The position numbers were made by a program, and so were the translations under genes. The notes beneath the pieces were generated by a model that was given only the letters and a program-made list of their open reading frames with translations, was not told where the DNA came from and searched no databases. From Candidatus Thorarchaeota archaeon (GTDB lineage: Archaea > Asgardarchaeota > Thorarchaeia > Thorarchaeales > Thorarchaeaceae), in assembly GCA_016839445.1 (NCBI GenBank), contig JAEOUG010000054.1:1-27272 (forward strand): DNA of 27,272 nt, written 5' to 3'. This document shows, piece after piece, positions 263 to 21,787 of the stretch (positions are counted from its first letter, which is position 1; the number at the start of each line of letters is the position of its first letter).

Positions 263-3200
263 CTAGTCGAGGTCAATACCTAGGCTGTCAAGCAGCGCAT
301 CAAGGTCAGCCTTGGAGAGGCTCTTCGCCTCTTCAACAATTACCTCAATCTCCTCAGGAGCCATGCCCTTCTTGAGTAGCTTCTCCTTGAGGTCCTGCAG
401 TTCACCAGGTGTCTCCTCGAGACGTAGTTCCTCACGGGCTGGTGCTTCCTTGACAGGTTTCGCCAAGGCATCCGCTCTCCTTGCCTTCTCCTGATCAATG
501 ACCTCCTTGAGGAAGCCAGGCCTCTCACTTGGCCTCATTCTGGCCAGGTCCGTCCTGAATGCCTCAATCTCGGCTTCTCCGAGGCCCGTGATTGACGCAA
601 GCTCCTCGAGGAGCTCGTTCACTTCGGGCACTGTGGTCACGATGGGTTCTGGAGCCACTTCAGCCTCAACCTTGGACAGCTTCAGAGCGTCTAGGTCTTC
701 ATTGACGATGGCCAAGGCAAGTGCCAATCTGGTTGGAGCACTGGCAGGCTTAGGAACTCGACCCTTGGCAAGTGCGCGAATCATGCGATTCAGCTCGCGA
801 ATGCCCTTCGGTACACTCCATACCTTGACGTACGCCAGAAGCAAGAAAGCTATGAGAATCAGACCAGAACCTACTCCGTAGGTAAGAGCCTGCTGGAACT
901 GCTGGCCTGAGCTGACATCCGACTTGATGACAAGCACTCTGAACTGAGTCACGTAGTCCTGCTTCTCAAACGTGATTGTCACGTAGAAGGTTCGACCGAT
1001 GTTGGAGGCTCCTGCCTGGAAGAATATTGTGTAGGTGCCCTCTTCATCAATCGTGAGATCCTCAAAGAACGTGACATTCTGCTGGTCGTAGTCAATTGTG
1101 ATGTTGGCTCCGGAAATCCCTATTTGATGATCGAGGTCGAAGTAGGTGAACGTGAGACTCTCTGACCTCCCCGGTATCGTCTCCACTGTCAGGTTCCCAT
1201 GGATCAGGGTCGTCAGAATGGGCCTGATAGTCAAGTCGAGATGGAGAGGGCCTAGCAGGTACTTAGTTGTGGAGAATATGATGTCAAACGCGTACGTACC
1301 GTAGGGCAGGTCACTGGCCAGCGGCAGGATATAGATGTCACCGACGAGGTCCAACTCAATGCTGCCCAATTGCACCGAGTGGGCCACTCCAATGACATCC
1401 GTGACATTCGAGTTGTCAAGCAGATTCCTGACGAAGTACTCGACCTCGATGATGTCATAGATTGCAGCCGAGTATGTTTCCGGCCCGACGATCTCTGCCG
1501 GTGTCGGGTAGATCTCTATCTTTGCAGTGTACGTCCGAGTTGTGTAGTTGGTGAGGTCGAACCGAACGACTAGGTCGTAGAGCCCTGGAACCTCGACTGT
1601 GAGCACGACCTCAACTGTGTAGTACCCAGATCCAATGTCTGTGACGTAGCCCAGACCGCCTACCCAAGCAGCGAACACATTCGCATTTTCAATTCCCGCG
1701 TCATGCTGGACGTCGTAGTAGTAGAAGGTGTATGTGAGATTGTATCCTGTGTAGTTGCTCTTCGTGACTGTGTCAACAGAAACCTCGGTAGGTATTGGAA
1801 GGATTGTCACGATGATTGACTTCAGTCCAGTGGCGTATCCCGGTTTCTCGGCCCTCAGTCGAAGATAGATTGACTGTGACGCCAGAGAGCTGATGTCAAT
1901 GTCTCCACTGTATGTTCCGTTGCCTTCAGGGTAGAGAGTCCCATTCAGAGACCCGAGAGTGTATCTGACTGTGGCTCCAGTGATGAGTACGCTGTTGTAT
2001 GTGTCGTTGTAGTAGACTAGTATGACCAAGCGATCGCCGAAGTATACCGTGACTATTGTGCTACCATCTGAAAGACGGACTTCAGTCGGGATTGGCACGA
2101 CATTGATGTCGATTGTGTTCTCCAGGAATGCGTGGTTCAATTCGACTGCGCGGATTATCAACGGATATTGACCAATCGCGAATCCCGTCACATCAAGGCT
2201 GCCCTGGTACAGTCCAGGAGTGGCAGTTGGGGTCAGAGCATACACAGAGCCATTCCACTCCATCGTTACAGTGGCACCTGTGACCGGTAGGCTGCGTATT
2301 GTGTCATTCAGATATACGTTGAATACGAGCGTAGTGTCAATCACAACACTATACACAGACTGGCCAGGAAGGATTTGACCGGTGGCCTTGTCAACTACCA
2401 AGGTGAAGGCCTTTGTCCGAGGCTGATAGAACTCCCTGGTGAAGGTGATCTGAGGGGAGAATGTACCGAAGTCGGCATCGGCTGTGTCCAAGAGGAGGCC
2501 ATAGTAGCCACCCACAAGCTCAGTGAAGTTGTAGATGGTGCCGCTCCACAGGAGGGTTGCCTCACCATCTATGACAGGAGTGCCATAGAAGACCTCAATG
2601 GCTTGGAAGGTTATGTTGACAGACTCTCCCCAATCAGCGAAGTACGCTGTCTTGCCCATGATGATTTCAACCGTCGAGGCGCCAGGTTGTACAGACACTG
2701 TCGCAATGGCAGACTGGTAGAAGGTCTTCTCGCTCCAGACATGGAAGGTGTATTTCTGAGAGAGCAATCCTTCGGTAGTGAGGGTTAGTAGATAGACCCC
2801 GTTTCCAACCTCCTCAACTGCGTAGCCGGTTCCTGCAACCAATGTCCAGTCGGTCTCAATCGTTGCACCCTCAAGGAGCAGGTTGTGGTCGAAGTCCTTC
2901 AGGAGCAAGGTGACTTCAATAGGCACACCAATTGCGGTGGAACCCGCAGGAGGTGCTTGAGCAAGCAGAGATGTCTTGACCAGGTTGATTGCCGCTGGAA
3001 CGCCTAGGGTCGTCCTGGATGCATAGAAGGGCGTTCCGCTCCTAGATAGAGTAAGGTCGAAGAACACAAGTCCTGTGTCACCAAACACCGTCGTGTTGAT
3101 GGACACTCGATAGAGACCGCCGCCTAGCAGCTCCAGGGAATAGCCTGAGATGCTGCCGTTCACACTTGTTATGAGGACTGTTGCCCCGTCGATTCCTCCT

Positions 3201-6200
3201 CCAGAGAGGTAGTCGATGTAGCTGAACTCGAGCGTTATGTTGTCGAAGTACGGAGTCTCAGCGACAAGCGGGAACAGAATCTGTGTAGGTCGCTCGACCG
3301 TAGTGGCCTTGGTCACAGTGCTGCGAGGAGCGTAATAGGGGCTTCCACTACTGGCATCAATGGCCAACTGGATCTCATACGCTGAGACCAGTCCCGTCGG
3401 GTTCAAGATGGTTGAACTGAACCGGATCTCGTAGTACGTTGGGTTGTTGATGAGTGTGTAGTCGCCTGAGGCGATGAGGGTGTGTGACGGACCGTGAGTC
3501 AGAGTGATGTGGGACTTGTCTATGGTGATCTTAGTCCCCGTAAGGAAGTCCGTGTATCTGAACCTGAAAACGATCTCTTCCAAGAACGGCGTTTCTCCGG
3601 GAGTCTGTGTGATGAGGATCTGAGTGACCCTCTGGGTGACTCTCGCGATGATGTTTCTCGTTCCACCAAGGTAGAACGGCTCACCGGAGTAGGAGATTGT
3701 CACAGTAAGGCGATACTTCGCAGGCGCTCCTAGCGCGGTGCTGTCGACCTCAATGAGGTAATTGCCCTCGCCCTGATAGCTGACCCAGTAGTTTGAATTC
3801 AACACAAGTGCAAAAGTGCCGTTAGCAGTCACAGTCACTGTGGCACCCGGTATGCCCCGCCCCGTACTATCATCAGTGTAGGATACAACCAGAGATACGT
3901 TGTCGAGATAGGGAGTTGGGTCCGGACTGTCGTATCCAATCTGCGTGCTGCGCTTCAGAACTGAGAAGTCGAAGACCTCCACTCCGTTTGCGAAGGTAGC
4001 ACTTGCATGGACCACAGTGGCAGTAATCGAATAGACTCCATCTGACGCAAAGGCAGTAGTGTTAATCACCACCACGAAGATCCCGTCACCATAGAACTGC
4101 ACGCTGTACTTGTCAGCTGCGATGTTCAGAGTGAGAGTACCAGTCATTCCGAGATTGGTGCCAGCAATCAGGTCTGTGTACAGGAAGGTGATAGTTACAT
4201 TATTGCCCCACTGGCCTGGAGCGAAGCTCGCGTGTGTCAACTGAGTCGCTCGTAGGATGACCGTAACAGTGAACGACCTACTACCCACAGACGCGTAGAA
4301 TGGCGCACCCGTGAATGTCACATTGAGGTGGAGGATGTGCACGCCCACGCTACCCAGACTGCTCGTGTCGATGTACAAGGTGAACACTCGGGTTCCAGAG
4401 TTGTAGGACATGGTGAATGACACGCCAAGATCATTCAGGCTGACAAGCACCTGACCGGAGTTCGGAATCCTTGTCGAGGTCAAGGTGTCAACGTAACTGA
4501 ACGAGAAGACTGCATCCTCACCGTAAGGAGTTGAAGCCACAGGGGAATAGTCGATGTAGGTGGGCCTATCTAGCACAACCAATGTCACGACCATCGTGCG
4601 GTTCTCATAGAGAGGTGATACGCCCTTTTCCCACATGAACCTGAGCTCGAACCTGAAGGTGTCTGTGCTTGGGAAGAGCGAGCTATCAAGCTGGAAGAAG
4701 TAGGTTCCCGGAGTCGTGCCAGACTCATATATGATGAAGTCAGACTGAGTGACTGAGTGCCCTGCATCCAACGGAGTTACTGTGACGAAGACATGATACG
4801 AGTCATTGTCGATGCGTTGGGCACCAATCATATCCCAATAGACCGCACTGAAGACGAATGTGTTCTGATAATACGTCGCCGTTGGGGCCTGCTCAAGATA
4901 CAGGTCTGTGTCCGTACCGGTTATGCGAACCGATGTGTTGATTGTCTGGCTGTAGAACTTGTCCACTGCACCAATCCATTCAATGTCAATCGTTAGGTCC
5001 TTCCAACCTATAGACCCCCATTGAAGTGTTGGGATGCTGATGTTGTAGTGACCTGTTCCAAGCAACGAGTCTGCGCTTGTGTAGATCACCGCGCCCAGCT
5101 CTGAAGTGGATACAGTGACTCTCACTTCGCTGGTACCATTACCAATGCCCACCCTGAGATCTGTGTCCTGGTAGAAGACAAGCACGGTGATTGTGCCACC
5201 ATAGGGTGTCTGAACGATTGGGTCATCAAGGACAAACAGGGTGTTGCGTTTGCGAATCTCCACACCGATGTTGAAAGTGTGATTCTGGTAGTTGAACTTC
5301 TCAATATTGAAGGTCACTGTAATCAGATTCGTACCAGTAAGAGGATCGTCGGACTGAGTGTATATCGTGATGTTGTAGGTCCCTGGGGATAACTCATCTA
5401 CAGTGTAGTTCTTGTCTCCGGACTCGTGGAAGTCAGTCCAGTTACAGGTTATCGAGTAGTTGGAGTTCTGGATAGGAGTCCCATGATCGAAGTCCGTCCA
5501 AGTCAATATGAAGGAAGCAGACTCGCCAAGAGGAATCGAGAGCTCGTTCGAGGTGTAGGAAATGGTGTTGTATATCTCTCGCACATCAACATACATGACA
5601 AGGCTCTGAGGCTCCACAAAGGGTTTCTTCGCCGTAATCTCGATGGGGTACTCTCCAATCGGCATTCCGGCCGTATTCAACTGGAACTGGTAGACGCCAG
5701 AACCGATGGGTGTGAGAGAGAAGGGATTTGCCCAGTCACACGAAATCGTTGCGCCAGTTATCCCTGTTCCATTCACGTTTTGGAATCGAACTCTGAAAGT
5801 CTGAGTGTCTCCGACCGGACCCGATATCCCAGGGTACTGTGGAGATGTCAGTACGGCTGCGTAGTTCACATTGATTGTGAGCGCCGTGCTGGCCGGGTCA
5901 AAGCTGGGGTGAGCCCAGTCTAGATCCATGACATACTGCCCCTTGCCAGGAAGCAAGGATGTGTCGACTACCTTGGTGTACTGCCCATTCCCGCTGTCAT
6001 CGAAGTCTTCGGAACCGAGAACCCAATCAAGAGTCAGAGTTCCTCCGGAGACAAGAACTGAGCTGTCAGTGTCCTCTGCCTCCATGATAATGAGAAGCAA
6101 GTCACCGAAGGTCACATTCGTCGTCAGTGTGGAAACAGCATCGGTCGGATAGACAAGAGCAAGATCAGAGTTGTGTCGGATTCTGAATGGTCTCTTGAAG

Positions 6201-7999
6201 AAACCAACAGAAGTCCAGTCGCCACCAGCACCCACATTGTTGGTGTTTGCCTGAATCATCCATTCACCTGCAGGCGCAGTACCACCAGGGAAACTGATTG
6301 ACGATGTAGTGGCATACCCTGAGCCATCCACCGTTTCAGTGTACGTGTTCCACACGCTACCATCAGGTCTGTAGACGGTGATGTTAACCTCGGAACCGGT
6401 GAAGCCAGGACCGAGATAGACTCGTATCTGAGTTGAATCTTCAGCTCTGAGCTCAACATCTCTCTCCCAGCTATCTCCGTCCCAAAGACGTAGATCCGTA
6501 ATCATGTTAGGAGATGTGCTGAGAAAACGCCAGTATCCATATCTTCCTGCCTCAGTGGCTATCGCGTATGCCGATATGTTGACATAGCCATCACCAGGCG
6601 CCCCACCAGTCCACCCGCTAGTGAGATTGGTTGACGGTGCAAGCGGCTTCGCTACGAAGTAGACATCGCGGTCAAGAGGCAGCGTTTCGTTGAAGAAGTA
6701 GCGATTAACGTAGCCTGTTGGTATGTTTGCCCTAAAGTACGAAGTGAAGTTGGCCGCAGTTCCGTTCAGGATGACAAACTTCTCGCCGTAGGATGTAGGA
6801 CTAATCTCGTACACGCTGCTGATGTCCAGCCGTCGCGCAAATAGGTTGGCTGAAGCGTCGAACTCCACCTTGATGACGGTGTTAGGATTCGGAGTAGAGG
6901 GAGTAGGAGTCCAGGTGAACACGAGATTCACTGGGCTTGTGTCCCATGGTGATGAAGGAACCTGAGTAATCGATGCTTGCCCAGGAGTGGGGCCGTCACT
7001 AACACTCAGACCATTCATCTCTAGATTGATGTCCGTTGGGTCGACAAGTGTCTTCATGAAGAGCTGGAAATTGTCAAACCTCGCCAGAGGACCGATCTCT
7101 GGGGCATATCCCACGACCTGTGTGCTCCAGAGCCCAAGCTCTGCAAGAACTGTGTTGTCTGTGAAGACAGAAGGATTGATAGTGATCAGGCCGGAATTGT
7201 ACCAGGTTTCCTCTGCGTCTATCTGCTCAAACACCTTCTGCCAGACATACTGGGATTCCACACTGAGATATAGACTGAATGACCCTGTCATGCCATAGTG
7301 AGTGTCATCCTGAGTATCAGCCCAGTAGTCCACCGTGAAGCCTGCCCAGACCACCGCACCCCTGTCGATGGTGGCCGTCTGACGTACCCATGCCCTTTCA
7401 TTGTCATAGTAGAACGGGGCACTCGTGCTATCGGAGTTAATCTCAAGCTCGACACAATCGTTTCCAGCACCGTGGCCGTCAGTGCGAATCAGTCCACTTA
7501 CAGTACTGTAGCCAGCATTCGACGTGGGCACAATACTCCAAGGTGATGTGCCACTCTCGAAATCGGGGTTCTGGAACCAAGTCCTGTTCTCAGTCAGCCC
7601 CGTGATTACCACATCAGCTTGATAGGCCTCCCAACCAACTCCCATAGTAACTCCAGCAGTAAAGTCAGTGGTGCCAGATCCTGGGATGTATTCCAGTTCA
7701 CTGTCGGAATAGCTACTCGTGCTGTTACCGAATTCAGAGCCGATCAACGGCGCATTCGTGCCAGACCACTCTGTCCAGCCCTGTTCAGTAAGCACGAACC
7801 GATGGAGTTCTTCGTTCGGGCCAAGCTCGATGAACTCACCGTTGCCGAGGTCTACAAGCCTCACATCCTCTGAATCACCAGATCCGGGGCTGCTCCCGGG
7901 GGTGAGATAATTGGAAACGATGTTTGGCGTGAAGGCCATAGGAAGCAACATGACTGCTGCAAAGAACAGCAGTGCAATCATCTGTCTTCGAGCTTTCAC
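263..7999 (-). CDS. Giant single-pass cell-surface glycoprotein A (2578 aa): signal peptide, head domain, 17 Ig-like repeats, TM, 184-aa cytoplasmic tail
   Basis: The N-terminus MKARRQMIALLFFAAVMLLPMA is a signal peptide. The ectodomain is T/S/Y/G/V-rich with many NxS/T sequons and a recurring ~100-aa motif. TM ALTYGVGSGLILIAFLLLAYVKVW lies at ~818-889, followed by a charged helical tail. The GTG start overlaps the upstream TGA (GTGA), and GGAGG at 8009-8013 is 9 nt upstream. Confidence 0.9.
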   Translation of the reverse strand: MKARRQMIALLFFAAVMLLPMAFTPNIVSNYLTPGSSPGSGDSEDVRLVDLGNGEFIELGPNEELHRFVLTEQGWTEWSGTNAPLIGSEFGNSTSSYSDSELEYIPGSGTTDFTAGVTMGVGWEAYQADVVITGLTENRTWFQNPDFESGTSPWSIVPTSNAGYSTVSGLIRTDGHGAGNDCVELEINSDSTSAPFYYDNERAWVRQTATIDRGAVVWAGFTVDYWADTQDDTHYGMTGSFSLYLSVESQYVWQKVFEQIDAEETWYNSGLITINPSVFTDNTVLAELGLWSTQVVGYAPEIGPLARFDNFQLFMKTLVDPTDINLEMNGLSVSDGPTPGQASITQVPSSPWDTSPVNLVFTWTPTPSTPNPNTVIKVEFDASANLFARRLDISSVYEISPTSYGEKFVILNGTAANFTSYFRANIPTGYVNRYFFNETLPLDRDVYFVAKPLAPSTNLTSGWTGGAPGDGYVNISAYAIATEAGRYGYWRFLSTSPNMITDLRLWDGDSWERDVELRAEDSTQIRVYLGPGFTGSEVNITVYRPDGSVWNTYTETVDGSGYATTSSISFPGGTAPAGEWMIQANTNNVGAGGDWTSVGFFKRPFRIRHNSDLALVYPTDAVSTLTTNVTFGDLLLIIMEAEDTDSSVLVSGGTLTLDWVLGSEDFDDSGNGQYTKVVDTSLLPGKGQYVMDLDWAHPSFDPASTALTINVNYAAVLTSPQYPGISGPVGDTQTFRVRFQNVNGTGITGATISCDWANPFSLTPIGSGVYQFQLNTAGMPIGEYPIEITAKKPFVEPQSLVMYVDVREIYNTISYTSNELSIPLGESASFILTWTDFDHGTPIQNSNYSITCNWTDFHESGDKNYTVDELSPGTYNITIYTQSDDPLTGTNLITVTFNIEKFNYQNHTFNIGVEIRKRNTLFVLDDPIVQTPYGGTITVLVFYQDTDLRVGIGNGTSEVRVTVSTSELGAVIYTSADSLLGTGHYNISIPTLQWGSIGWKDLTIDIEWIGAVDKFYSQTINTSVRITGTDTDLYLEQAPTATYYQNTFVFSAVYWDMIGAQRIDNDSYHVFVTVTPLDAGHSVTQSDFIIYESGTTPGTYFFQLDSSLFPSTDTFRFELRFMWEKGVSPLYENRTMVVTLVVLDRPTYIDYSPVASTPYGEDAVFSFSYVDTLTSTRIPNSGQVLVSLNDLGVSFTMSYNSGTRVFTLYIDTSSLGSVGVHILHLNVTFTGAPFYASVGSRSFTVTVILRATQLTHASFAPGQWGNNVTITFLYTDLIAGTNLGMTGTLTLNIAADKYSVQFYGDGIFVVVINTTAFASDGVYSITATVVHASATFANGVEVFDFSVLKRSTQIGYDSPDPTPYLDNVSLVVSYTDDSTGRGIPGATVTVTANGTFALVLNSNYWVSYQGEGNYLIEVDSTALGAPAKYRLTVTISYSGEPFYLGGTRNIIARVTQRVTQILITQTPGETPFLEEIVFRFRYTDFLTGTKITIDKSHITLTHGPSHTLIASGDYTLINNPTYYEIRFSSTILNPTGLVSAYEIQLAIDASSGSPYYAPRSTVTKATTVERPTQILFPLVAETPYFDNITLEFSYIDYLSGGGIDGATVLITSVNGSISGYSLELLGGGLYRVSINTTVFGDTGLVFFDLTLSRSGTPFYASRTTLGVPAAINLVKTSLLAQAPPAGSTAIGVPIEVTLLLKDFDHNLLLEGATIETDWTLVAGTGYAVEEVGNGVYLLTLTTEGLLSQKYTFHVWSEKTFYQSAIATVSVQPGASTVEIIMGKTAYFADWGESVNITFQAIEVFYGTPVIDGEATLLWSGTIYNFTELVGGYYGLLLDTADADFGTFSPQITFTREFYQPRTKAFTLVVDKATGQILPGQSVYSVVIDTTLVFNVYLNDTIRSLPVTGATVTMEWNGSVYALTPTATPGLYQGSLDVTGFAIGQYPLIIRAVELNHAFLENTIDINVVPIPTEVRLSDGSTIVTVYFGDRLVILVYYNDTYNSVLITGATVRYTLGSLNGTLYPEGNGTYSGDIDISSLASQSIYLRLRAEKPGYATGLKSIIVTILPIPTEVSVDTVTKSNYTGYNLTYTFYYYDVQHDAGIENANVFAAWVGGLGYVTDIGSGYYTVEVVLTVEVPGLYDLVVRFDLTNYTTRTYTAKIEIYPTPAEIVGPETYSAAIYDIIEVEYFVRNLLDNSNVTDVIGVAHSVQLGSIELDLVGDIYILPLASDLPYGTYAFDIIFSTTKYLLGPLHLDLTIRPILTTLIHGNLTVETIPGRSESLTFTYFDLDHQIGISGANITIDYDQQNVTFFEDLTIDEEGTYTIFFQAGASNIGRTFYVTITFEKQDYVTQFRVLVIKSDVSSGQQFQQALTYGVGSGLILIAFLLLAYVKVWSVPKGIRELNRMIRALAKGRVPKPASAPTRLALALAIVNEDLDALKLSKVEAEVAPEPIVTTVPEVNELLEELASITGLGEAEIEAFRTDLARMRPSERPGFLKEVIDQEKARRADALAKPVKEAPAREELRLEETPGELQDLKEKLLKKGMAPEEIEVIVEEAKSLSKADLDALLDSLGIDLD
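920..6180 (-). repeat. 17 degenerate tandem protein repeats (~95-115 aa; beta-sandwich/Ig-like) in protein A
   Basis: Consensus by eye: pyG..v.f.f.Y.D....gI.gA.v...w.....gnG.Y.i.idT..l...g.y.l.i....fy......i.v..r.T. Examples: PYLDNVSLVVSYTDDSTGRGIPGA, PYFDNITLEFSYIDYLSGGGIDGA, YFGDRLVILVYYNDTYNSVLITGA. Boundaries are approximate. Confidence 0.8.
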
Positions 8000-10900
8000 T
8001 CGTCCATCCCTCCTATCTGGTCAAGCAGAGCATCTATCTCTGCCTTCGTGAGGTGCTTGGCTTGTTCTATCATCAATTCAGCCTCTGATTCTTCAATGCC
8101 CATGGAGAGCAGTTTCTTTCTCAGTTGCTCGAGCTCCTCGTCAGAAAGACCAACAGGGGCGGCCTCCTCAACAGGAACCTCCTCGACGGCCTCAGCCAAC
8201 TCCTTAGCGCGCCTCGCACGTTCCTGCTTCAGAACCTCGTTGATGAAGCCAGCACGTTCACTTGGCCGCATCTTGTCGAGATCTGTTCGGAGAGTGTCTA
8301 TGTCCGCGTCAGTGAGTCCGACAACTGTGGCCAGCTCTAGGAGAAGGTCTTCAACATCCATCACGGTCACATCTACGGTGGACAATGCGATATCATCCTG
8401 AGTCTTCTTGATGCCGACTGGCGCCAGGTCCTCATTCATGATAGAGAGAAGCATCTCTCTCCTGCGGTGGACATTCGCGGGCCTAGGAATTCTTCCCTTT
8501 GAGAGCGCACCAACCATCCTTCTGAGAATTCGAAGGAGCCTAGGCACAGACAGGACTCTGAAGTACAGAACCGCCAGCCCAGCTATGGCCAGAATCAACA
8601 TGGTACCCCACTGGAATCCGGCAATAGCCAGCTCCTGTCCGGGGCTTAGTGAAGGATAGATGTCCAGTTCAACAATGCCCACTTGATAGTCTACCTTCCT
8701 TAACTCAATCCGTAGACTGTAGTATGCCAGGTTCGGAGCCCGGAACGCAAGAGAATAGCTCCCATTGCCATAGTTCACATCGAGTTCTGTGACGCGGGTG
8801 AGTCCTTGCTCAAGCGCGCTGGCCGAGATAACGCTGATCTCTGCGTCAGGAATTTGCAGACCGTGATCTATGTCCGTGAAGGTCACATTGACAAAGAACG
8901 TTTCACCAACATAGAGAACTGCTGGAGCGGGTGTGTGTGTGACTGTGGTTGCGATTCTTCTTATTGTCAGCGAGACGTCGATTTGAGCGCGAGAGTAGTT
9001 CCCTCGTGATATCGAGATTCGTAGAGAGTAGGGCGCATCGCGGTCCTGTAGCGGAGATGCCAAAGCAGCCTCCGTTGGACCAAACCGATAGGAGCCGTTT
9101 CCGAGATTGGTCAGAGGTACAGTGCCAAACTCCCAGACAGCAACAGCATCAGCGTCAGTGATCCATTCGCTGTTCAGGCTGTCCCAGTAGGAGAACAGCA
9201 TTGTATAGTCATCATAGACAGGAACAATCAGAGAGTTCTCCGCCTGCATGATTGTAGGTATGGGCTGAACGAGCAGCTTCACAAGTGTCGTGGAGAACTC
9301 GTAGTTGTCCTTCCTGAAAGTGACGGAAATGCTGTGCGGGACGCTGCCGGCCGTCACGAGAGACGTGTTGAGAGTCAGAGAATAGGTACCACCACCGAGG
9401 TCCACCAGAGAGCCTCTGAAGCTCTCAAGAGTATAGTTGGTGACCGCACCCGGAATGCCCTCCACAGCGTGTGTGTCGTTGAAGAGGAAGTAGAATGTGA
9501 CGTTGGTTCCGTAGTAGCCGCTGAGTGTGGCTTCAGTAAGAATAACGGCCTCGGTTTCAATCCTTTCGATTGAGAGCGTGTACTGTACCGAGGAGGGAGC
9601 ATAGCCGCCCTTTGAGCTAGAAATGGTGACCACCCAGTCGCCCACACTTAGGTAGCTAGTGTTGATGTAGGCAGTGTAGTAGCCAGGCGTCACATCCTCA
9701 ACAAGAGTGCCGACAACCCCCTCGCCTACGCCGAAGGTGACATTGGCACCAACGACTGGGAGTCCAAGGTCAGTGTTATTGAGATAGACTGTGATTTCCG
9801 CTATGTCTCTGAAGTTCACAACAACCAATGACTCGGTTATCGGGAGGGTCTCTGTGGAAACCTCTGTGATCTCTATCGAAATTTGAGTGCTGACGCTCTT
9901 GAAGTTGGGTGATGATGCCTGAATCAATATGTAGTAGAGACCCACATCGGCCCCACTCACGACCATGTATCCGACGTATTCGCCATCCAAGGCAGACCAG
10001 TCTAGAGTACCAGTTCCGCCAATCCAGCTGTAGGTCACAAGAGCAGGGGGCTGGATAGCAGTATCATTAGCGAGGACGAGATAGTCAACACGAATCGTGA
10101 CTGTGAGCCCGTCCACGGCACTTGTTGGGAGTAGGGACGCAGAGATTTTGGCAGGAATCTTGTCGATCCGAATCTGGAAGTCCCTTCTTCGGGTCTCGTA
10201 GTTAGCGAGTGTACACTCAACACTGATTGTATACTCTCCAGCAGTGAGTTCTCCTGTGTAGATAGAGGCGTTGTAGATTCCTGGAAGAACCTCGGTCATC
10301 AGGACCCACTCTGTAGAGAGGGTCAGATTCACTGCCGCCCCAATGACAGGAGCGCCTGTTCTGGCATCAGTGACGTTCGCTTGGAAATGAACCACGTCGC
10401 CAAATGAGGGAGTAGTGGGCCAGAATGTCAGCTCAATCTGAACTGGAACAGCTGCTAGAACGATGTCCACCTCGATGGACTGGCTCTGATGCAGAAACAG
10501 AGAGGCATTGATAGTGAAGCGATAGCCTTGAGCGGCCAAGAGTGATGTGTCAATTGCTATCTGATAGAGCCCACTGCCACCTCCGAGAGGAGTGATAGGT
10601 GCAGCGGTGCCGTAGAGAGCCGTCCAGTCTGTGACCACTGTGGCTCCGTCAATTCCAGTGTCGAACTCAATAGTCCTGTATGAGATGTTCGCATAGACAG
10701 TGTCGCCCAGATAGTAAGTCACTCCTTCTGGAAGAGTGAAGGTCAGTGTTGTGGAAACAGGATTCACGATGAGGGAGAAGTCGACACCTGTGATGTTCTG
10801 ATAGTAAGGAGCTCCTACCCACTCGAAGTCTGCTGTGAAGTTGTAGAGACCAAGGCCAGGGAGGGTGTTTGTGTCAATCAGGACTGTGTATGTACCATCA

Positions 10901-13900
10901 AGGTTGTCTACAAACCAGTATGTGAAGCCTCCTGTTTCGGGACTATCGATGGTCACGTCTGCACCGATGATTGGTGCTCCTGTGAGGTAGTCGCTGAACC
11001 TCAGCAAGGCAGTCATGTTGAAGTAGTAGTATCCTGGAGGAGTCTGTAGCACCGTTACCTGAGTGGAGCGAGCTTGAATGTCTACCTCTGTAGAGGTTGT
11101 GGAGTTTCCGTAGTAGGGAGTGACATCACCCCAGTAGAAGAGGACGAAGATAGGATGTCCCTCCACAAGAGCAGAAGTGAGAGTCAGAGAGTTGACTTGG
11201 ATGGTGTAGACACCGTCCGCTCCAGTGAGAGTATATTGTCCATCAGCTATCACTGTGCCAAGACCATGAGAGAGTATGAGATTGGCCTTTGTGAGAACGA
11301 TCCCAGTTCCATCTAGTTCATCAGTGATGGTTATCTCGAAGCTCACGTCGGATCCATAGGGAGTGTTCAGTGGAGACTTCGACACGCTTAGGCTTGCGGG
11401 ACGTCGTGAGACCTCAATGCCAACATTGCGGACTCGTGTTTGATAGAATGGTTCGCCTGAAGTCCACTGTGCAGTGACAGTGATTGTGTAAGGGCCGAAG
11501 TTGCCAAGCGCGTTAGTGTCGATTCTGATTCTGTAACTTCCGTCAAGGAAGTCGTCAACCCAGTAATTGACTCCAAGAGCGAGGGTTTCGTCGGCCGCCG
11601 CACATGCAATCGTGATGGTTGCGCCGTCAATCCCTGCGTCAGTGTTGTCATCGATGTAGTATACGGTGATGTTGGCCTGAGTCAAGAACGGAGCAAGGTC
11701 AGGAAGATCGCTGGTGAGCTGCGTCCTCCGGATGACAATCGAGAGGAAGAATGAATCAGTGGCATCTGAGCAGTACCTGCTTCCTCCGTACTCCATGGAT
11801 ACGTTAACTGTGAATACGCCCAATTCGCCGAAGACAATAGTGTTGAGATGGAGAGTATAGAGACCATTACCAAGATCATCAACAGAGTAGTAGCCCACTA
11901 GGCCTGCATCCAGAGTGAGGGTTCCCCCGCCCATCAATGCAGTTGAGTAATCATCCAGGTCACGATATGTGAAGTTGAGGTGCAGAACGTTCCCATACTG
12001 GACAGGAGCATATGAACCGTGTGTAAGACTTGTATACCGATCTCGAACGGTTATTGGTATGGAGATGCTGGTTCTGTTTTGATAGAATGGGCTTCCTACC
12101 CACTCAGCGTTAACCAGAATCGAGTGACTCCCGGGTGTGAAGACGGAAGTATCAATCTCAATGTAGAAGATGCCAGTAACGTCGCCATCATAGTAGATCG
12201 TGAAGCCATATCCGGTGACGCTGATTGTGAGCTCTAGACCATTCAATATGGGTTGCCCTGAGAGCGAGTCTCGGAACACTATACTGAGGTTCACCAACTC
12301 GTCATAGGGAGTCACAGGGATCGGACTCCAATCGAGGGTGGTGAGACGGCTTACTGTGGTGATGGTGATTAGAATGACCTGATTCTGATAGTATGGCAGC
12401 TGCCCACTGGTCCAGTTGAACCAGATGCGAAGCTCGAGGTCTCCGAGGCCAGAGAGGAGGCCTGTGTCAAAGAGAATCCTGTACTCACCGGGATTCGTGA
12501 TTGCATTTACCTCGGAGATTGTCATATCACTCTGAGTGATTGACTCTCCTGCAGTCAACACGTCTATGTAGATGTGAACGTTACCTGCGAACAGACCAGT
12601 TGTGTTCACGATGCCACCGTTGGCGCCAACGTCGAAGAACACGATGGTGAAGCTAACATCCTCGTCATATGGTGTGACTACGGGGCTCTCACCCAAGAAG
12701 ACGTCAGTAGGTGCAGCGGTTATGACAACACTTGTAGAGACCCATAGGTTGGAGTACTTGGTGTTGACACCTACCCAGTTCATGTAGAAGGTAAGGCCAA
12801 CGGTTCCTACGTCACCCCATTGATCCGCAGGAAGGACAATCGTGTAGAGCCCCTCAGGTGAAATGCTAACCACATAGAACGTCGGCGATGGCAGCGTTGG
12901 GCTCGTGATAATGAGCTGCACAATTCCACCAGGAGTGGTTCCGTTCACAATGCCCGTGTCCGCGTCGACGTCGTAGTAGACCAGATTGACGGTGATATTC
13001 CCAGTGAAGGGAGTTGGGTCAACTGCGTTATTCAAGTACATTGATGTTAGGTGCGTCCGGAGCTCAACTGTGACAATGAAGCTATGGTTCTGGGCCCCGT
13101 ACTGCTCTACCTGGAAGAGAATGTCATAGGTGCCCAGGGGGTCATCGTCTGCGGAATTGATGCTAACCCTGTAGACACCTGGAGTCGCGGTCTCAGTGAC
13201 CGTGAAGTCAGACCAATTACAGGAGATTGCAGATTCCGCCCCACTGATTGGAGCCTTCAGGTCTGTGTCCCTGTAGGTGATTGTGAAGGTGGTTGTGTAA
13301 CCCACCGGGAGAGAGAGGAAACTGGATGACGGAATAGCTGAAGTATGTAGCTCTCGAACGTCAACTGAGAGGATGATAGAAGTGGGATCGTGGAAATTCT
13401 TCTTCGCAGTTATGAGAATGTTGTAGATGTCGAGAGCAACTCCTGTGGTATCGAGACTCAGGGTGTAGTAGCCTGGAGCTCCTGGTGTCACGCTATAGCT
13501 CTGTGTCCAGTTGCATGTGATTCCTGCTCCAGTGATTGGCTGAGAGTTCATATTCTCGAAGTAGAGCTCCAGTTCTGCCGAATACCCACTTGGCACATCA
13601 ATCCCCGGTGCATCTGAGGAGTACAAGTCAGTCTCATAGATGACGTTTATCGTGAACGATTGAAGGATGGAATCATAGAACGACTTGCTCCAGGAGAAGT
13701 CGACCTCAAACTGCCCATTGGTGCCCAGAGTCCCTGTGTCCAGATTCAGGCTGTACTCGCCTGTACCCATGTCGTTGGCTGTTCCTGACCCGAAGTCGCC
13801 TGAGTACTGCATCACTCCGCCGGCCAGCAGATCACCATTGTCCGTGTCATTGACACGTAGTTGAATGAACACCAGATCTCCGTACGTCACATTGACAGAC

Positions 13901-15804
13901 CATGTAGTCTTGGCACTGATGGGATACTTCACAGATACCTGAGTGCCATGCTCAATACTGAAGGAACGTCTGAAATAACCCACATTGTGGACGTACCCAG
14001 TCGACGACTCGTCAGTCACAAATGCCTGTACCTCCCAGTCGCCTACGTCAGCAGTCACTGCGTCGAGGTTCACATATCCCGATGTGGCCAGACCGCCAGC
14101 ATCGACAACAGCCTGTAGCGTATCCCAGACAACACCACTGGAATCGTATATGACAAACGTGACGATGTCGCCCTCATACGCAGATGAGAGGGTAGCTCGG
14201 AACCTAGTGTCCTCGTCAGCCCTGAAGGTCCCCGTAGGTACCCAAGAAGTAGCGTCATCGTCCCAGACGCTCAGACCGGAAATCATGTTCGGCGATGTAC
14301 CTCGTAACATCCAAAGGCCATTCGGATCATCTAAGCCCACGGAGTAGACAGATACATTCAGGACGCCGTCACCGGGGTCTCCAAGCCACCAATTGCTTGT
14401 GAGATTGGTGAACCGGTGGAATGGCTCAGATACGAAATTGATGTCGCGATTCAATGGGAGACTCACGTTGAAGAAGTACTGACTCCCATAGCCGCCCGGA
14501 ACTGAAACATAGAAGTTGGTTTCCCAAGATACGGTACTCGCGTTGGAAACTTGGTAGTTGTCTCCCACAGTGAGCAACTCGGTGTTACCAATCGTTGGGC
14601 TTAGCAGACGACGTGCGAAGACCCAGACATTGACATCTATGTTGACATTGATATCGAAATCCGGATCGGGCGGAAATGGTGAGGGAGTCCATGAGAAGTT
14701 GGCATATGCAGCCCCTGATGACCATGGTGTAAGCGGCTCATAGTAGGCGGTACCCAGCCCGAAGACAGGATCCAATCCGACAATGACGTTGTCGACATCA
14801 ACTCCATTCATCTGTAGGTTGACATCTTCGGGTGTGGCCTTTGCTGTGATGTAGATTAGGATGTTGTCGACACGCGCTCTCGGATTGATGTCTGGGCGCC
14901 ACCACTCTAAGGCAGTGGTTCTGAGACCTGCCCAGATCGACACATTCGGCAGGCTCATGACAGACGGGTCCACGCTGACGAAGCCTGTCGAGTACCATAT
15001 ACCGTCATCAGCGATTGCATCAAATGGGATGCTCCACAAGTACTCGCCGCCGTTGTCAGGGTCGCCGACGGAAACGAAGACCTCAAAGAAACCTGTCATG
15101 TATCCAGCCCAAGCGACATCAGCCCAATAGTCAAGTGAAATGCCGAGAGAGGTCACGTCCCCACGATCAATAGTGAGGTTCTGGACCATGTAGGCCTTGT
15201 CACCTACATCATACCAGTCGCCGTACAGGCCACCGCCTGCGTCGTAGTAATAACCATCCATGTAGAAGTAGGCTGCACCATCTCCTGTTCCATGTCCGTC
15301 TGCTTGCCACTGGGATGTGAGGGCATTAGTATAGGACGGACCGAACGCTGAAGCAATGTCATCGGTCTCAAAGGACCAACTCGAGCTGTCGTCGAGGCCG
15401 GAATTGTCAATCCACGTTCTGTTCTCAGTTATGCTTGTTATGTCAGCATAGACACCATAGCTCTCCCATCCCTCGCCGAGCGGTACAGAGAGATTCGCGG
15501 TAGACAGTGACGAAGTGCCTGAGTCATAGTCCATGCTTTCATCGACAAACGTGTCCACGCGGATGCCAGATTCGTTTGCGAGAAGAGGATCTCCCGTCCC
15601 AGTTCGACCTGTGGGCACATCAGAGAGTCGATACTCATAGACAACCTCATCGGGAGCCACTTGAATCAACTCACCGTTTGAGAGTTCGACAGTCTTGCTT
15701 CCCGCAGAGCCAGTGTTCGCATTCAATGAAGATGGCGTCATCATGACACCCATCATCAATGGCACAAACACAAGCAGCAGTCCTATCATTCTCTTTGGCC
15801 GCAT
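7996..15804 (-). CDS. Giant single-pass cell-surface glycoprotein B (~2602 aa), full-length paralog of protein A
   Basis: Start reassigned from 15870 to ATG 15804: MRPKRMIGLLLVFVPLMMGVMM is a signal peptide and AGGAGTG (SD) lies at 15811-15817. It is collinear with protein A (GWE..ENRTW, TIDRG.V, W(S/T)WTP-like, SPNMI, RTDL..MRPSER.GF). TM at ~8551-8616. Confidence 0.9.
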   Translation of the reverse strand: MRPKRMIGLLLVFVPLMMGVMMTPSSLNANTGSAGSKTVELSNGELIQVAPDEVVYEYRLSDVPTGRTGTGDPLLANESGIRVDTFVDESMDYDSGTSSLSTANLSVPLGEGWESYGVYADITSITENRTWIDNSGLDDSSSWSFETDDIASAFGPSYTNALTSQWQADGHGTGDGAAYFYMDGYYYDAGGGLYGDWYDVGDKAYMVQNLTIDRGDVTSLGISLDYWADVAWAGYMTGFFEVFVSVGDPDNGGEYLWSIPFDAIADDGIWYSTGFVSVDPSVMSLPNVSIWAGLRTTALEWWRPDINPRARVDNILIYITAKATPEDVNLQMNGVDVDNVIVGLDPVFGLGTAYYEPLTPWSSGAAYANFSWTPSPFPPDPDFDINVNIDVNVWVFARRLLSPTIGNTELLTVGDNYQVSNASTVSWETNFYVSVPGGYGSQYFFNVSLPLNRDINFVSEPFHRFTNLTSNWWLGDPGDGVLNVSVYSVGLDDPNGLWMLRGTSPNMISGLSVWDDDATSWVPTGTFRADEDTRFRATLSSAYEGDIVTFVIYDSSGVVWDTLQAVVDAGGLATSGYVNLDAVTADVGDWEVQAFVTDESSTGYVHNVGYFRRSFSIEHGTQVSVKYPISAKTTWSVNVTYGDLVFIQLRVNDTDNGDLLAGGVMQYSGDFGSGTANDMGTGEYSLNLDTGTLGTNGQFEVDFSWSKSFYDSILQSFTINVIYETDLYSSDAPGIDVPSGYSAELELYFENMNSQPITGAGITCNWTQSYSVTPGAPGYYTLSLDTTGVALDIYNILITAKKNFHDPTSIILSVDVRELHTSAIPSSSFLSLPVGYTTTFTITYRDTDLKAPISGAESAISCNWSDFTVTETATPGVYRVSINSADDDPLGTYDILFQVEQYGAQNHSFIVTVELRTHLTSMYLNNAVDPTPFTGNITVNLVYYDVDADTGIVNGTTPGGIVQLIITSPTLPSPTFYVVSISPEGLYTIVLPADQWGDVGTVGLTFYMNWVGVNTKYSNLWVSTSVVITAAPTDVFLGESPVVTPYDEDVSFTIVFFDVGANGGIVNTTGLFAGNVHIYIDVLTAGESITQSDMTISEVNAITNPGEYRILFDTGLLSGLGDLELRIWFNWTSGQLPYYQNQVILITITTVSRLTTLDWSPIPVTPYDELVNLSIVFRDSLSGQPILNGLELTISVTGYGFTIYYDGDVTGIFYIEIDTSVFTPGSHSILVNAEWVGSPFYQNRTSISIPITVRDRYTSLTHGSYAPVQYGNVLHLNFTYRDLDDYSTALMGGGTLTLDAGLVGYYSVDDLGNGLYTLHLNTIVFGELGVFTVNVSMEYGGSRYCSDATDSFFLSIVIRRTQLTSDLPDLAPFLTQANITVYYIDDNTDAGIDGATITIACAAADETLALGVNYWVDDFLDGSYRIRIDTNALGNFGPYTITVTAQWTSGEPFYQTRVRNVGIEVSRRPASLSVSKSPLNTPYGSDVSFEITITDELDGTGIVLTKANLILSHGLGTVIADGQYTLTGADGVYTIQVNSLTLTSALVEGHPIFVLFYWGDVTPYYGNSTTSTEVDIQARSTQVTVLQTPPGYYYFNMTALLRFSDYLTGAPIIGADVTIDSPETGGFTYWFVDNLDGTYTVLIDTNTLPGLGLYNFTADFEWVGAPYYQNITGVDFSLIVNPVSTTLTFTLPEGVTYYLGDTVYANISYRTIEFDTGIDGATVVTDWTALYGTAAPITPLGGGSGLYQIAIDTSLLAAQGYRFTINASLFLHQSQSIEVDIVLAAVPVQIELTFWPTTPSFGDVVHFQANVTDARTGAPVIGAAVNLTLSTEWVLMTEVLPGIYNASIYTGELTAGEYTISVECTLANYETRRRDFQIRIDKIPAKISASLLPTSAVDGLTVTIRVDYLVLANDTAIQPPALVTYSWIGGTGTLDWSALDGEYVGYMVVSGADVGLYYILIQASSPNFKSVSTQISIEITEVSTETLPITESLVVVNFRDIAEITVYLNNTDLGLPVVGANVTFGVGEGVVGTLVEDVTPGYYTAYINTSYLSVGDWVVTISSSKGGYAPSSVQYTLSIERIETEAVILTEATLSGYYGTNVTFYFLFNDTHAVEGIPGAVTNYTLESFRGSLVDLGGGTYSLTLNTSLVTAGSVPHSISVTFRKDNYEFSTTLVKLLVQPIPTIMQAENSLIVPVYDDYTMLFSYWDSLNSEWITDADAVAVWEFGTVPLTNLGNGSYRFGPTEAALASPLQDRDAPYSLRISISRGNYSRAQIDVSLTIRRIATTVTHTPAPAVLYVGETFFVNVTFTDIDHGLQIPDAEISVISASALEQGLTRVTELDVNYGNGSYSLAFRAPNLAYYSLRIELRKVDYQVGIVELDIYPSLSPGQELAIAGFQWGTMLILAIAGLAVLYFRVLSVPRLLRILRRMVGALSKGRIPRPANVHRRREMLLSIMNEDLAPVGIKKTQDDIALSTVDVTVMDVEDLLLELATVVGLTDADIDTLRTDLDKMRPSERAGFINEVLKQERARRAKELAEAVEEVPVEEAAPVGLSDEELEQLRKKLLSMGIEESEAELMIEQAKHLTKAEIDALLDQIGGMDE
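8660..13950 (-). repeat. 17 degenerate tandem Ig-like protein repeats in protein B
   Basis: Same consensus as protein A, e.g. PFLTQANITVYYIDDNTDAGIDGA, YYGTNVTFYFLFNDTHAVEGIPGA, YVGETFFVNVTFTDIDHGLQIPDA. Boundaries are approximate. Confidence 0.8.
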
Positions 15805-15970: not shown

Positions 15971-18142
15971 TCAGCTTGGATGGACTCTTCGTCTGAGGAC
16001 AATGACCACTCCAGCGAGTGAGAGCACAGATACCGTCACAGCTGCGCCCACAACCAGAGGATTGAGTCCTTCGCCCAAGGGCAGACGTAGCAGCCCACCT
16101 TCCGCCGAGTTCATAGCCCAATCCCAAGCCACAAGCCAGACTGTGGCGGCCTCATCATAGACTACTGGATCTATGACGCAGCTCCAGTTTCCTCCTCCAT
16201 ATTCACAGGGGTACACAAGCGGGGTTGAGTTATCCACCTGAACATAGACTGTGACATTCTCTAATCCAGCAGTATCGTCAGTCACCGTGGCCCAGTATGT
16301 GAAGCTGTCTGTTGATGGACGCGCAGGTATTGTACCCCACCGCTGTATCATTGGGGCCACAGAATCATGTCTTGAGTATATCATGCGCTTACTCCAGTCT
16401 CGAGCCTTGCAGAGCATATCATAGCATTTCAACCAGTCCATCTGATTGTAGGCTTCTCGCGCCAAGTCGAAGCAAGTCAGCGCATTCTGTTCGGCGAGAA
16501 GAGTCTCCTCTCGGTCGGTAGGCTCGACGAAGGTTTGTCTGTACTGGAACTCATCCCAGGTGAGTGCTTCCATCTGGTCCAGAAACGTCCCCTGTACCCA
16601 GTCTTTGTCGAAACTGGAAGTGCCATTGTGGTCAGCGAAGTAACCCATCGGGCCATAACTGAAGTCACCTGTATAGTGCTCATGAACCCATGTGTGTCCG
16701 AAGCCAACTGCGTGCATCGACTCGTGAAGTTGTACTGAAGACACGCCGTTCCTTGGCGTTACGTTGTCAGAACGATAATAGCGCTCCCATGATTTCCAAA
16801 TCACAGTCTGGCCGCCAAACTCGCCATTGTAACCCAGACCAGTGTAGGTGCCGTCTCCGTAGTACATCACCATGTTCTGCTTAATGAAGACAACACCAAA
16901 GACACTGACAAGATCAGGACCTGTAGGGATGCGGTAGGGTCGGACAACTTCATAGATATAGTTGAACATCTCTCCTCCGTCTACTTCAGTGACTCCTTCC
17001 TCGTTTACCGATGCCGAACGCCAGAAGGTGTAGTTCCAAGCGGCATCTTGGTTGATGTCGACGAAGTCCAACTGGACATTCCAGTCAATGAAGGGATAGA
17101 GCTCCTCAAGGTGATGCTGCTGCATCTCCGCATCTGTGACCCAGCGAAGGCTATCTACAGAGATTCCGCTCTCGACATCCATGCAAACCACTGTCACCCG
17201 AAGCTCGCCTGAGGTCACATACTTCGCCGGGCTGTGCTGCACAGGGAACAACAGAAACGAAACTATGTCAAACATGTAATTGCGGAGATACACACTGAGC
17301 TGGTTGACACCGGTGGGTGTTCCAAGATCAACCTCAGCAACCTTGTCCTCGAGATCCTTCGTCCAATGATCGTAGTCAGCCCCTATGTAGTCCTGCCACC
17401 AGATACGAGCCCAACGAAGGTACCACTGATTTGCGGATGGATCCAGAGCGTAGATGTTCCCTCTGCCACCGAATCCTGCGTACTGCATCTCGAGCGGCGG
17501 ATTTAGGTCGTGGTCAAACTCAAGTCGGAACCAGTCCTGCATCATCCCCGTGTCGGGATCCTGTGCCGCATAGTCATACCAGTGTTCTAGCTCATGCCCT
17601 GGAGTATCCATGCTTGAGAAGTTGAGAAGATACAGGTTGTATCCCAAGCTTGGTGGTGCGACACAGGGATGCTCCATGAGCCAGTCTTCAAGAGCAATCC
17701 CGTCAATTGCCCGACCATCGCGCGGATTGAAGACCCTGATGGGAGTGCCTGGGTCCCCTCTCTGAATGGAGAGTGCGCTACTATTGAGCTTGGTGCCAAT
17801 GCCTGTTCCGTTAACCGAATTATCGAGAGCAAACGCCCGAAGGGCTGAGGAGTAGCTCTCGTTTGCGTAGTGAATCTGATAATCGAAGTTGTAAGTTATC
17901 CCGACATCATCTGTCTGGTGTAGGCGAGAAGCGGGCATGGTGTTTAGGAGAGTGTCTTCATTGATGTTGTCGGCATCATAGTCGACGAGAATGACGTTGA
18001 GCGTCCAATCCCTCTCGATATATACCAAATCTTGTGACGGAGCATAGGTAATATCGTGTGACGGCTTTGCCTCCGGCACGGTGCCTAGAGGTAGAGTCGC
18101 AGCTAGGAGAACCAAGACGGCAAAGAGCGCAGCACGAGCCAT
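15971..18142 (-). CDS. Secreted, C-terminally membrane-anchored zinc metalloprotease (metzincin), 723 aa
   Basis: Signal peptide MARAALFAVLVLLAATLPLG. The motif HESMHAVGFGH (16694-16726) fits HExxHxxGxxH, with a Met-turn-like GPMGY shortly after. A short helical bundle and an Ig-like domain (ATVTDDTAGLENVTVYV...AWDWAMNS) follow, then TM PLVVGAAVTVSVLSLAGVVIVL and RRR. Confidence 0.88.
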   Translation of the reverse strand: MARAALFAVLVLLAATLPLGTVPEAKPSHDITYAPSQDLVYIERDWTLNVILVDYDADNINEDTLLNTMPASRLHQTDDVGITYNFDYQIHYANESYSSALRAFALDNSVNGTGIGTKLNSSALSIQRGDPGTPIRVFNPRDGRAIDGIALEDWLMEHPCVAPPSLGYNLYLLNFSSMDTPGHELEHWYDYAAQDPDTGMMQDWFRLEFDHDLNPPLEMQYAGFGGRGNIYALDPSANQWYLRWARIWWQDYIGADYDHWTKDLEDKVAEVDLGTPTGVNQLSVYLRNYMFDIVSFLLFPVQHSPAKYVTSGELRVTVVCMDVESGISVDSLRWVTDAEMQQHHLEELYPFIDWNVQLDFVDINQDAAWNYTFWRSASVNEEGVTEVDGGEMFNYIYEVVRPYRIPTGPDLVSVFGVVFIKQNMVMYYGDGTYTGLGYNGEFGGQTVIWKSWERYYRSDNVTPRNGVSSVQLHESMHAVGFGHTWVHEHYTGDFSYGPMGYFADHNGTSSFDKDWVQGTFLDQMEALTWDEFQYRQTFVEPTDREETLLAEQNALTCFDLAREAYNQMDWLKCYDMLCKARDWSKRMIYSRHDSVAPMIQRWGTIPARPSTDSFTYWATVTDDTAGLENVTVYVQVDNSTPLVYPCEYGGGNWSCVIDPVVYDEAATVWLVAWDWAMNSAEGGLLRLPLGEGLNPLVVGAAVTVSVLSLAGVVIVLRRRVHPS

Positions 18143-21725: not shown

Positions 21726-21787
21726 CTCTCTGCCCTGACCTGCACGGGCAATGAGCCTTTGGACTTCAATGTTTGCCTGAATCTCGC

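Follow-up and report, generated by a model that had tools for sequence, protein, structure and literature searches.

A 27,272-nucleotide (nt) contig stretch (the window) from a metagenome-assembled genome (MAG; 2.9 Mb, 89.8% complete) of Candidatus Thorarchaeota carries two adjacent genes, A and B, encoding giant membrane proteins with stalks of 17 repeats each. Both descend from a single giant type-I membrane glycoprotein whose gene was duplicated in tandem long ago, and the family is specific to Thorarchaeia-like Asgard archaea. We favor, at a probability of about 55%, the reading that these two duplicated proteins act as a pair, most likely as a heteromer. They have the same domain order, namely a signal peptide, a head resembling a carbohydrate-binding module (CBM), two beta-sandwich domains, the 17-repeat stalk, one transmembrane helix, and a helical tail of ~190 amino acids (aa).

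The two proteins align collinearly from end to end in one BLASTP alignment, with 854 identities over 2652 positions (32%), 5% gaps, a score of 1147 bits, and E = 0. Repeats were counted with an iterated hidden Markov model (HMM), which was trained on A and B themselves and then run on orthologs outside the training. In B, numbered here from the open frame including its extension to 15870 (P0002), the HMM finds 17 contiguous repeats at residues 649–2407. In A, it finds 16 strong repeats and a weak one at position 16 (residues 2166–2260), the whole spanning residues 617–2361. All 19 B orthologs have 17 repeats, and so do 14 of 20 A orthologs; the other six have 16 plus a one-repeat-sized gap at position 16. 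The original prediction had counted 17 repeats in each protein by eye, and this count is borne out in A, B, and the untrained orthologs, with no difference between the two proteins. The repeats are gap-free by HMM and repeat 1 of A is modelled as a seven-stranded domain with predicted local distance difference test (pLDDT) values above 90, as in a tandem beta-sandwich array. A Pfam search of whole A and B at E ≤ 0.01 returned no family, including Big_1–Big_13, PKD, Cadherin, and FN3.

The repeats also correspond position by position. With single sequences compared by the Smith–Waterman algorithm, the nth repeat of B is the best match for the nth repeat of A at 12 of 17 positions, and the reverse is true at 13 of 17. 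When position-specific profiles from 21 A sequences are used instead, 16 of the 17 A profiles score best on the B repeat of the same number, while A13 prefers B14, and every one of the 17 B repeats is best matched by its A counterpart. Mean identity is 32% between repeats of the same number in A and B, 25% between those of different number, and ~25% among the repeats inside one protein. Position-specific lengths agree as well, repeat 5 being the longest in both (115–122 aa in A, 118–122 aa in B). The profiles and the collinear alignment confirm the proposed match of repeat n of A with repeat n of B, and the four motifs cited as examples are located in repeats 4, 5, 7, and 9 of both proteins.

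That each repeat position has a counterpart points to an old duplication of the whole gene, as had been proposed, and the tree of the head domains agrees. In this tree, A and B lie on opposite sides of a branch with a support of 98 (Shimodaira–Hasegawa-like approximate likelihood ratio test), and each side includes the copy of a second family, which is represented by one sampled genome. The duplication therefore predates the split of the two sampled families, and the equal repeat count is thus inherited. The ancestor already had 17 repeats, and neither copy has gained or lost one in the sampled lineages. In the tail tree, the A and B tails of the second-family genome (L027, G001:C33) are nearest each other (support 94/89), a grouping that could have arisen by gene conversion limited to the tail. 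The tail alignment has eight columns that are fixed differently in A and B, and 42 conserved columns that are common to both.

The stasis of the stalk extends over all 39 fetched orthologs, in which it is 17-repeat-sized (1736–1757 aa in A, 1744–1766 aa in B, 1736–1766 aa overall). The region after the last repeat measures 215–221 aa in all but one of them. Repeat counts in orthologous pairs had been expected to co-vary; within A/B, neither count varies at all. Selection for matched height is not separable from selection on each stalk's own length. The heads are less uniform. B falls into two size classes, ~2564–2618 aa and 2879–2914 aa, which differ in the head only, the first repeat starting at residue 601–643 in the short class and at 909–947 in the long class. 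The extra head stretch of ~290 aa is present in about half of the sampled B orthologs (L009–L012, L014, L016, L020, L023) and never in A. One long-form B (P0086) has precomputed Pfam matches to the NHL repeat PF01436, PF13449, and PF17170.

The original prediction held that arrays of this kind expand and contract readily. The statement does not fit the A/B stalks themselves, whose DNA lacks tandem arrays as well as direct repeats of more than 33 nt, and therefore offers no substrate for slippage or unequal crossing-over. It does fit the proteins that share their tail. The tail module ends 1–14 other giant open reading frames (ORFs) of 1850–6208 aa per Thorarchaeia genome. Counted with the same HMM, these relatives carry 22 repeats in type C (three genes), 21 in type D (four genes), 23 in type E (two genes), 23 in type F (one gene), 30–31 in type G (two genes), and 9, at least 27, 30, and 33 in the four genes of type H. 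In the tail tree, H is sister to A plus B (support 91/83) inside a clade with 100/100 support, and within H, a 9-repeat gene and one with at least 27 repeats, both from the same genome, are each other's closest relatives at 100/99. In this neighboring type, repeat number has thus changed quickly. With a range of 9–33 among the tail-sharing relatives, repeat number is therefore evolvable in the superfamily, and for this reason the absolute stasis of A/B suggests constraint. The genome of the window (G000) has a third tail-bearing giant gene on contig C88 (L005:3–2297, plus strand), which is cut by the contig end and whose tail groups with the 22-repeat C type.

We then inspected how A and B are arranged and distributed across 87 genomes of the class. 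In 79 of them, A has a match at E ≤ 1e-50; 69 of these are strong (best E ≤ 4e-136), and the others are at the level of paralogs. Among the rows listed, at least 44 genomes have B immediately upstream of A in the same orientation. At 20 fetched B-to-A junctions, the two genes overlap by 4 nt in 17 cases and by 1 nt in two, and are separated by a 4-nt spacer in one. Including the window, the 4-nt overlap occurs at 18 of 21 junctions, and it is also seen in G045 and G024. Conserved adjacency with a stop/start overlap is a gene-pair arrangement of the heteromer type. One genome (G060) carries the order B'-A'-B-A, so the pair has been duplicated as a unit. Frequent loss of one paralog in relatives would have spoken against pairing, and no listed row has an intact A or B whose contig runs on but whose partner is absent, contig ends having been checked in part. 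The exception is G024, in which B is broken into four ORFs (312, 287, 915, and 1418 aa, with 17 repeats in total) beside an intact A. In the same genome (L035, G024:C3), an unrelated opposite-strand gene lies between B and M, the gene that precedes B in the window. Two apparent breaks were rejected as assembly effects, since B of G045 reaches a contig end and A of G019 is split by 100 N. The locus is also missing in places: the closed genome G010 lacks A, B, and M, searches of G038 (99% complete), G042, and G082 likewise detected none of the three, and the single-contig genome G058 has only scattered fragments of A and B, with an in-frame TGA in A.

Two further tandem pairs of the superfamily allow a comparison with B and A. 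B then A overlap by 4 nt and have 17 and 17 repeats. E then F also overlap by 4 nt in both genomes examined and have 23 and 23 repeats, although their heads measure 3527 and 1139 aa. C then D are separated by gaps of 66–195 nt and have 22 and 21 repeats. It is suggestive that coupled pairs are equal and the uncoupled one is unequal, in a set of three pairs in which the C–F counts are shared by descent. The E (~6200 aa) and F (~4000 aa) genes follow one another at L039/L038 (G045:C6) and L044/L045 (G067:C75).

The structure of the head was modelled with AlphaFold2 on A residues 1–713, using a 31-row alignment (mean pLDDT 87.9). The model consists of an N-terminal hydrophobic helix, a hairpin (residues 47–59), a jelly roll (residues 77–318, pLDDT ~90), two beta-sandwich domains, and the seven-stranded repeat 1. 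VIA-align against 48,161 PDB representatives matches residues 133–318 to CBMs and MAM domains (Z 12–13.5, root mean square deviation (rmsd) 2.6–3.9 Å over 126–166 residues). The CBM matches include the alginate-binding CBM 8zqf (Z 13.5) and 2zew, 4bj0, 2xom, and 1gui (Z 11.5–12.6), which places this segment in the CBM jelly-roll fold. The fold is shared with the jelly-roll CBMs CBM4, CBM16, CBM22, CBM61, and 8zqf and with MAM domains at 9–15% sequence identity. Pfam searches gave no CBM match on the whole proteins or on pieces of them, and at E ≤ 5 the head and tail pieces had sub-threshold matches only, for example MG2 at E 0.019. Residues 497–713 resemble the extender repeats of adhesins and the MG domains of complement, with Z ~11. 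A Foldseek search with the whole 713-residue model returned generic multi-domain matches only (TM-score 0.1–0.2) and was set aside. The N-terminal hairpin (A residues ~47–59; 7820–7860 and 15660–15700 in the window) has the consensus VDxGxGxxIxxxPxExL and is modelled at low confidence. It is kept in most B and many A orthologs and is missing in 7 of 20 A orthologs. It could be a docking strand.

The tail was modelled on the last 239 residues of A with a 42-row alignment (pLDDT 80) and consists of the transmembrane helix followed by eight helices. Candidate relatives of the tail were rejected: the best PDB sequence match, from single-sequence and profile searches, had E 0.0062 and was treated as noise; the best VIA-align match (Z 7.2 over 60 residues) is within the noise range for helical models; and the best ESM Atlas match (0.86, with HAMP-like clusters at 0.82–0.84) is below the 0.9 level taken as a lead. 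N-glycosylation sequons are distributed as expected of a type-I protein, all 42 in A and 44 of 45 in B lying before the transmembrane helix and none in either cytoplasmic tail. Among orthologs, the tail has the highest identity (56–58%), followed by repeats 1–9 (~45–57%). The membrane-proximal repeats are the least conserved (37–49%), and repeat 17 with the transmembrane helix stands at 37–39%. Large ORFs (1122–4511 aa) in another family of the phylum likewise terminate in the transmembrane, juxtamembrane, and three-helix part of the tail, with 6–8 matches per genome, some in tandem rows (L053–L056; G133:C15, G133:C28). The juxtamembrane part is found in three more families of the phylum.

Taken together, these features suggest how A and B may operate. 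B and A would be made in equal amounts from one coupled message and would work together as a non-redundant pair, most likely a heteromer. The pair would hold its putative sugar-binding heads at a fixed distance from the membrane, with the membrane-proximal repeats acting as a spacer, and the tail would connect to a cytoplasmic partner common to all family members. The pair may form part of a stalked surface coat on cells without a classical S-layer (surface layer). A cultured Lokiarchaeon imaged by cryo-electron tomography has no ordered S-layer, and complex surface proteins whose identity is not known protrude from its cells (PMC9834061). It is likely that A and B work as a pair. That they form a physical heteromer is plausible because of the coupled translation, the duplication as a unit in G060, the joint absence, and the eight tail columns that distinguish A from B.

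A multimer prediction of A head residues 30–484 with B head residues 50–515, made in one run without controls, scored 0.00 (mark 0.32) and speaks neither for nor against contact. Several points weigh against pairing. The support for contact between A and B is indirect. Descent suffices to account for the equal count, and genes born of a tandem duplication would lie side by side in any case. With no DNA repeats to allow slippage, some of the stasis may stem from mutation rather than from selection. The C/D tandem tolerates unequal stalks (22 and 21). The tail is shared by up to 14 proteins per genome and so cannot confer A–B specificity. The locus is dispensable, being absent from G010, with B broken in G024 and only fragments in G058. 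Sugar binding is a candidate function that derives from the modelled fold, and the Pfam CBM models fail on the head. As to expression, a 233-nt contig from one RNA library matches 8051–8283 exactly, inside the B tail region; it is a weak hint with possible DNA carry-over. Sequencing runs containing DNA of the locus are mostly sediment, estuary, mangrove, and soil metagenomes, next to one RNA run.

A second explanation, which we regard as possible though clearly less probable than pairing, is that A and B are independent, non-interacting surface proteins whose heads have taken different ligands, whose stalk length is frozen, and whose co-transcription is a leftover of the tandem duplication. 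The positional orthology showing that the count is inherited, the lack of a recombination substrate in the DNA, and the unequal stalks of the C/D pair are all compatible with independence, as are the ~290-aa insert gained by the B head alone in about half of the lineages and the retention of A beside a fragmented B in G024. It accounts less well for the preservation, throughout the class, of a precise 4-nt overlap at 18 of 21 junctions, for the duplication of the pair as a unit in G060, and for the lack, G024 excepted, of a listed intact copy without its partner where the contig continues. Both stalks have also remained unchanged while sister paralogs range from 9 to 33 repeats.

A and B could instead be pillars of an S-layer-like two-component canopy in which the stalk sets the width of a pseudo-periplasm, comparable to SlaA/SlaB or to tetrabrachion with its bound protease. 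We consider this unlikely. Strong matches in 69 of 87 genomes, the C-terminal membrane anchor, the many sequons, the invariant architecture, and the protease-like gene M next door would all suit such a canopy. Archaeal S-layer glycoproteins (8c8o, SlaA/SlaB 8qox) resemble A/B in their immunoglobulin (Ig)-like arrays, sequons, and C-terminal membrane anchor, and in SlaA/SlaB two gene products act together. The structural matches are of limited precision: the N. maritimus chain 8c8o has a Foldseek E of 4.9e-10 but a TM-score of 0.13, a generic match, and SlaA/SlaB 8qox has Z 11.0 but an rmsd of 21.9 Å. A/B differ from archaeal S-layer proteins in their much longer stalk and large conserved cytoplasmic domain, and a conserved 190-aa cytoplasmic tail is not known as an S-layer feature. 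The locus is missing from the closed genome G010, and the imaged Lokiarchaeon lacks an ordered S-layer (PMC9834061).

We give a similarly low chance to a more far-reaching proposal, in which A/B would be the core of an Asgard-specific giant receptor superfamily made of integrin-like obligate heterodimers, with necessarily matched stalk lengths and inward-signalling tails, and would be the 'complex surface proteins' of Asgard cells. The tail module might then relay events at the distant head into the cell, with the actin-based cytoskeleton and the membrane-remodelling machinery as possible recipients, and the coupled 17+17 and 23+23 pairs would be a prokaryotic analogue of integrin-like adhesion receptors. 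Integrin alpha and beta are likewise type-I proteins that each combine a large multi-domain ectodomain with a single transmembrane helix and a cytoplasmic tail, and they form an obligate pair, as A and B would if they do pair. Unlike integrins, A and B are mutual paralogs, and their ~190-aa helical tails are shared with many other proteins. No integrin beta-propeller or I-like domain was found by Pfam in A and B or by fold search in the A head, and matches to integrin chimeras in the PDB sequence search of the tail (E 0.55–1.8) were discarded as noise.

That the pair is a molecular ruler whose 17-repeat length sets or measures the size of another structure, an option raised in the original prediction, is highly improbable, since the invariant stalk length is the one point in its favor while there is no known measured partner, related pairs carry 21–23 repeats, and conservation is lowest in the repeats next to the membrane, a pattern that fits a passive spacer. 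The height of 60–75 nm suggested in the original prediction likewise finds no support in these results.

The paired, stalked surface proteins that we favor are also comparable to bacterial giant repeat adhesins with Ig-like extender regions, which likewise have thousands of residues of beta-sandwich domains and a distal ligand-binding head. The large adhesion protein tetra-repeat 6xi3 aligns to A residues 497–713 with Z 11.7. Apilactobacillus kunkeei reportedly has tandem Giant1–5 genes (PMC12863079), a row of giant genes resembling the A/B locus. Bacterial giant adhesins are known for type-1 secretion or sortase anchoring. A/B differ from them in their anchor, a C-terminal transmembrane helix followed by a conserved cytoplasmic tail, in having old repeats that are ~25% identical and frozen in number, and in forming a translationally coupled pair of paralogs. 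Neither Pfam nor the PDB gave a sequence match to the A/B family, and full-text literature searches turned up no description of it. Beyond the pair itself, the analysis brings to light a previously undescribed superfamily of giant type-I surface proteins in Asgard archaea, which have one cytoplasmic module in common. A and B are concrete candidates for surface structures of Asgard archaea, the relatives of eukaryotes, and the locus is a natural test of whether paired surface proteins keep equal stalk lengths (17/17 and 23/23, with 22/21 in the uncoupled pair and 9–33 in unpaired proteins).

The features of the locus are collected in Table 1. The gene order on the minus strand is M, then B, then A, with an AT-rich spacer of 167 nt between M and B. 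The database-annotated start of A lies six codons downstream of the GTG at 7999. The true start of B is likely the ATG at 15804, the end coordinate given in the original prediction, because the resulting N-terminus resembles those of the orthologs.

Table 1. Positions of the genes and protein segments of the M–B–A locus in the window
Feature	Position	Strand	Remark
Gene A	263..7999	-	2578-aa type-I membrane protein; GTG start at 7999
Gene B	7996..15804	-	~2602-aa paralog of A; open frame extends to 15870
GTGA overlap of B TGA stop and A GTG start	7996..7999	-	layout of translational coupling
Gene M	15971..18142	-	723-aa membrane-anchored protein, HExxHxxGxxH motif
A head jelly roll, residues 77–320	7040..7771	-	CBM-like; AlphaFold2 model and VIA-align
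A residues 321–616, two more beta-sandwich domains	6152..7039	-	second has only a weak MG2 match
A stalk, residues 617–2361	917..6151	-	17 beta-sandwich repeats of 95–116 aa each; repeat HMM
A transmembrane helix, ~residues 2362–2392	824..916	-	
A cytoplasmic tail, ~186 aa, helical	266..823	-	most conserved segment
B mature N-terminus and head, P0002 residues 46–648	13927..15735	-	homologous to A head
B stalk, P0002 residues 649–2407	8650..13926	-	17 repeats; repeat HMM
B transmembrane helix and cytoplasmic tail	7999..8649	-	

The product of gene M has a signal peptide and, toward its C-terminus, an Ig-like region and a transmembrane anchor. Its zinc-binding motif is that of metzincins (HESMHAVGFGH-type), and the residues H473, E474, H477, G480, and H483 do not vary among the 11 orthologs aligned. 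A metzincin family match was not obtained, the Pfam Astacin model reaching E 0.78 and the PDB giving no match by single sequence or profile; in the ESM Atlas, M falls into its own Thorarchaeota cluster at 0.98, with nothing informative beyond. M has a match in 61 of the 87 genomes; it is the gene immediately upstream of B in 10 of the 19 genomes fetched and, among the rows listed, in about 31. As a membrane metalloprotease-like protein, M may, speculatively, process the pair or accompany it. Farther upstream on the same strand as M, B, and A are two genes for probable surface proteins, one of 426 aa (20580–21860, minus strand) with sub-threshold leucine-rich-repeat matches and one of 1179 aa (21788–25327, minus strand) with a sub-threshold Laminin_G_3/concanavalin-like match.

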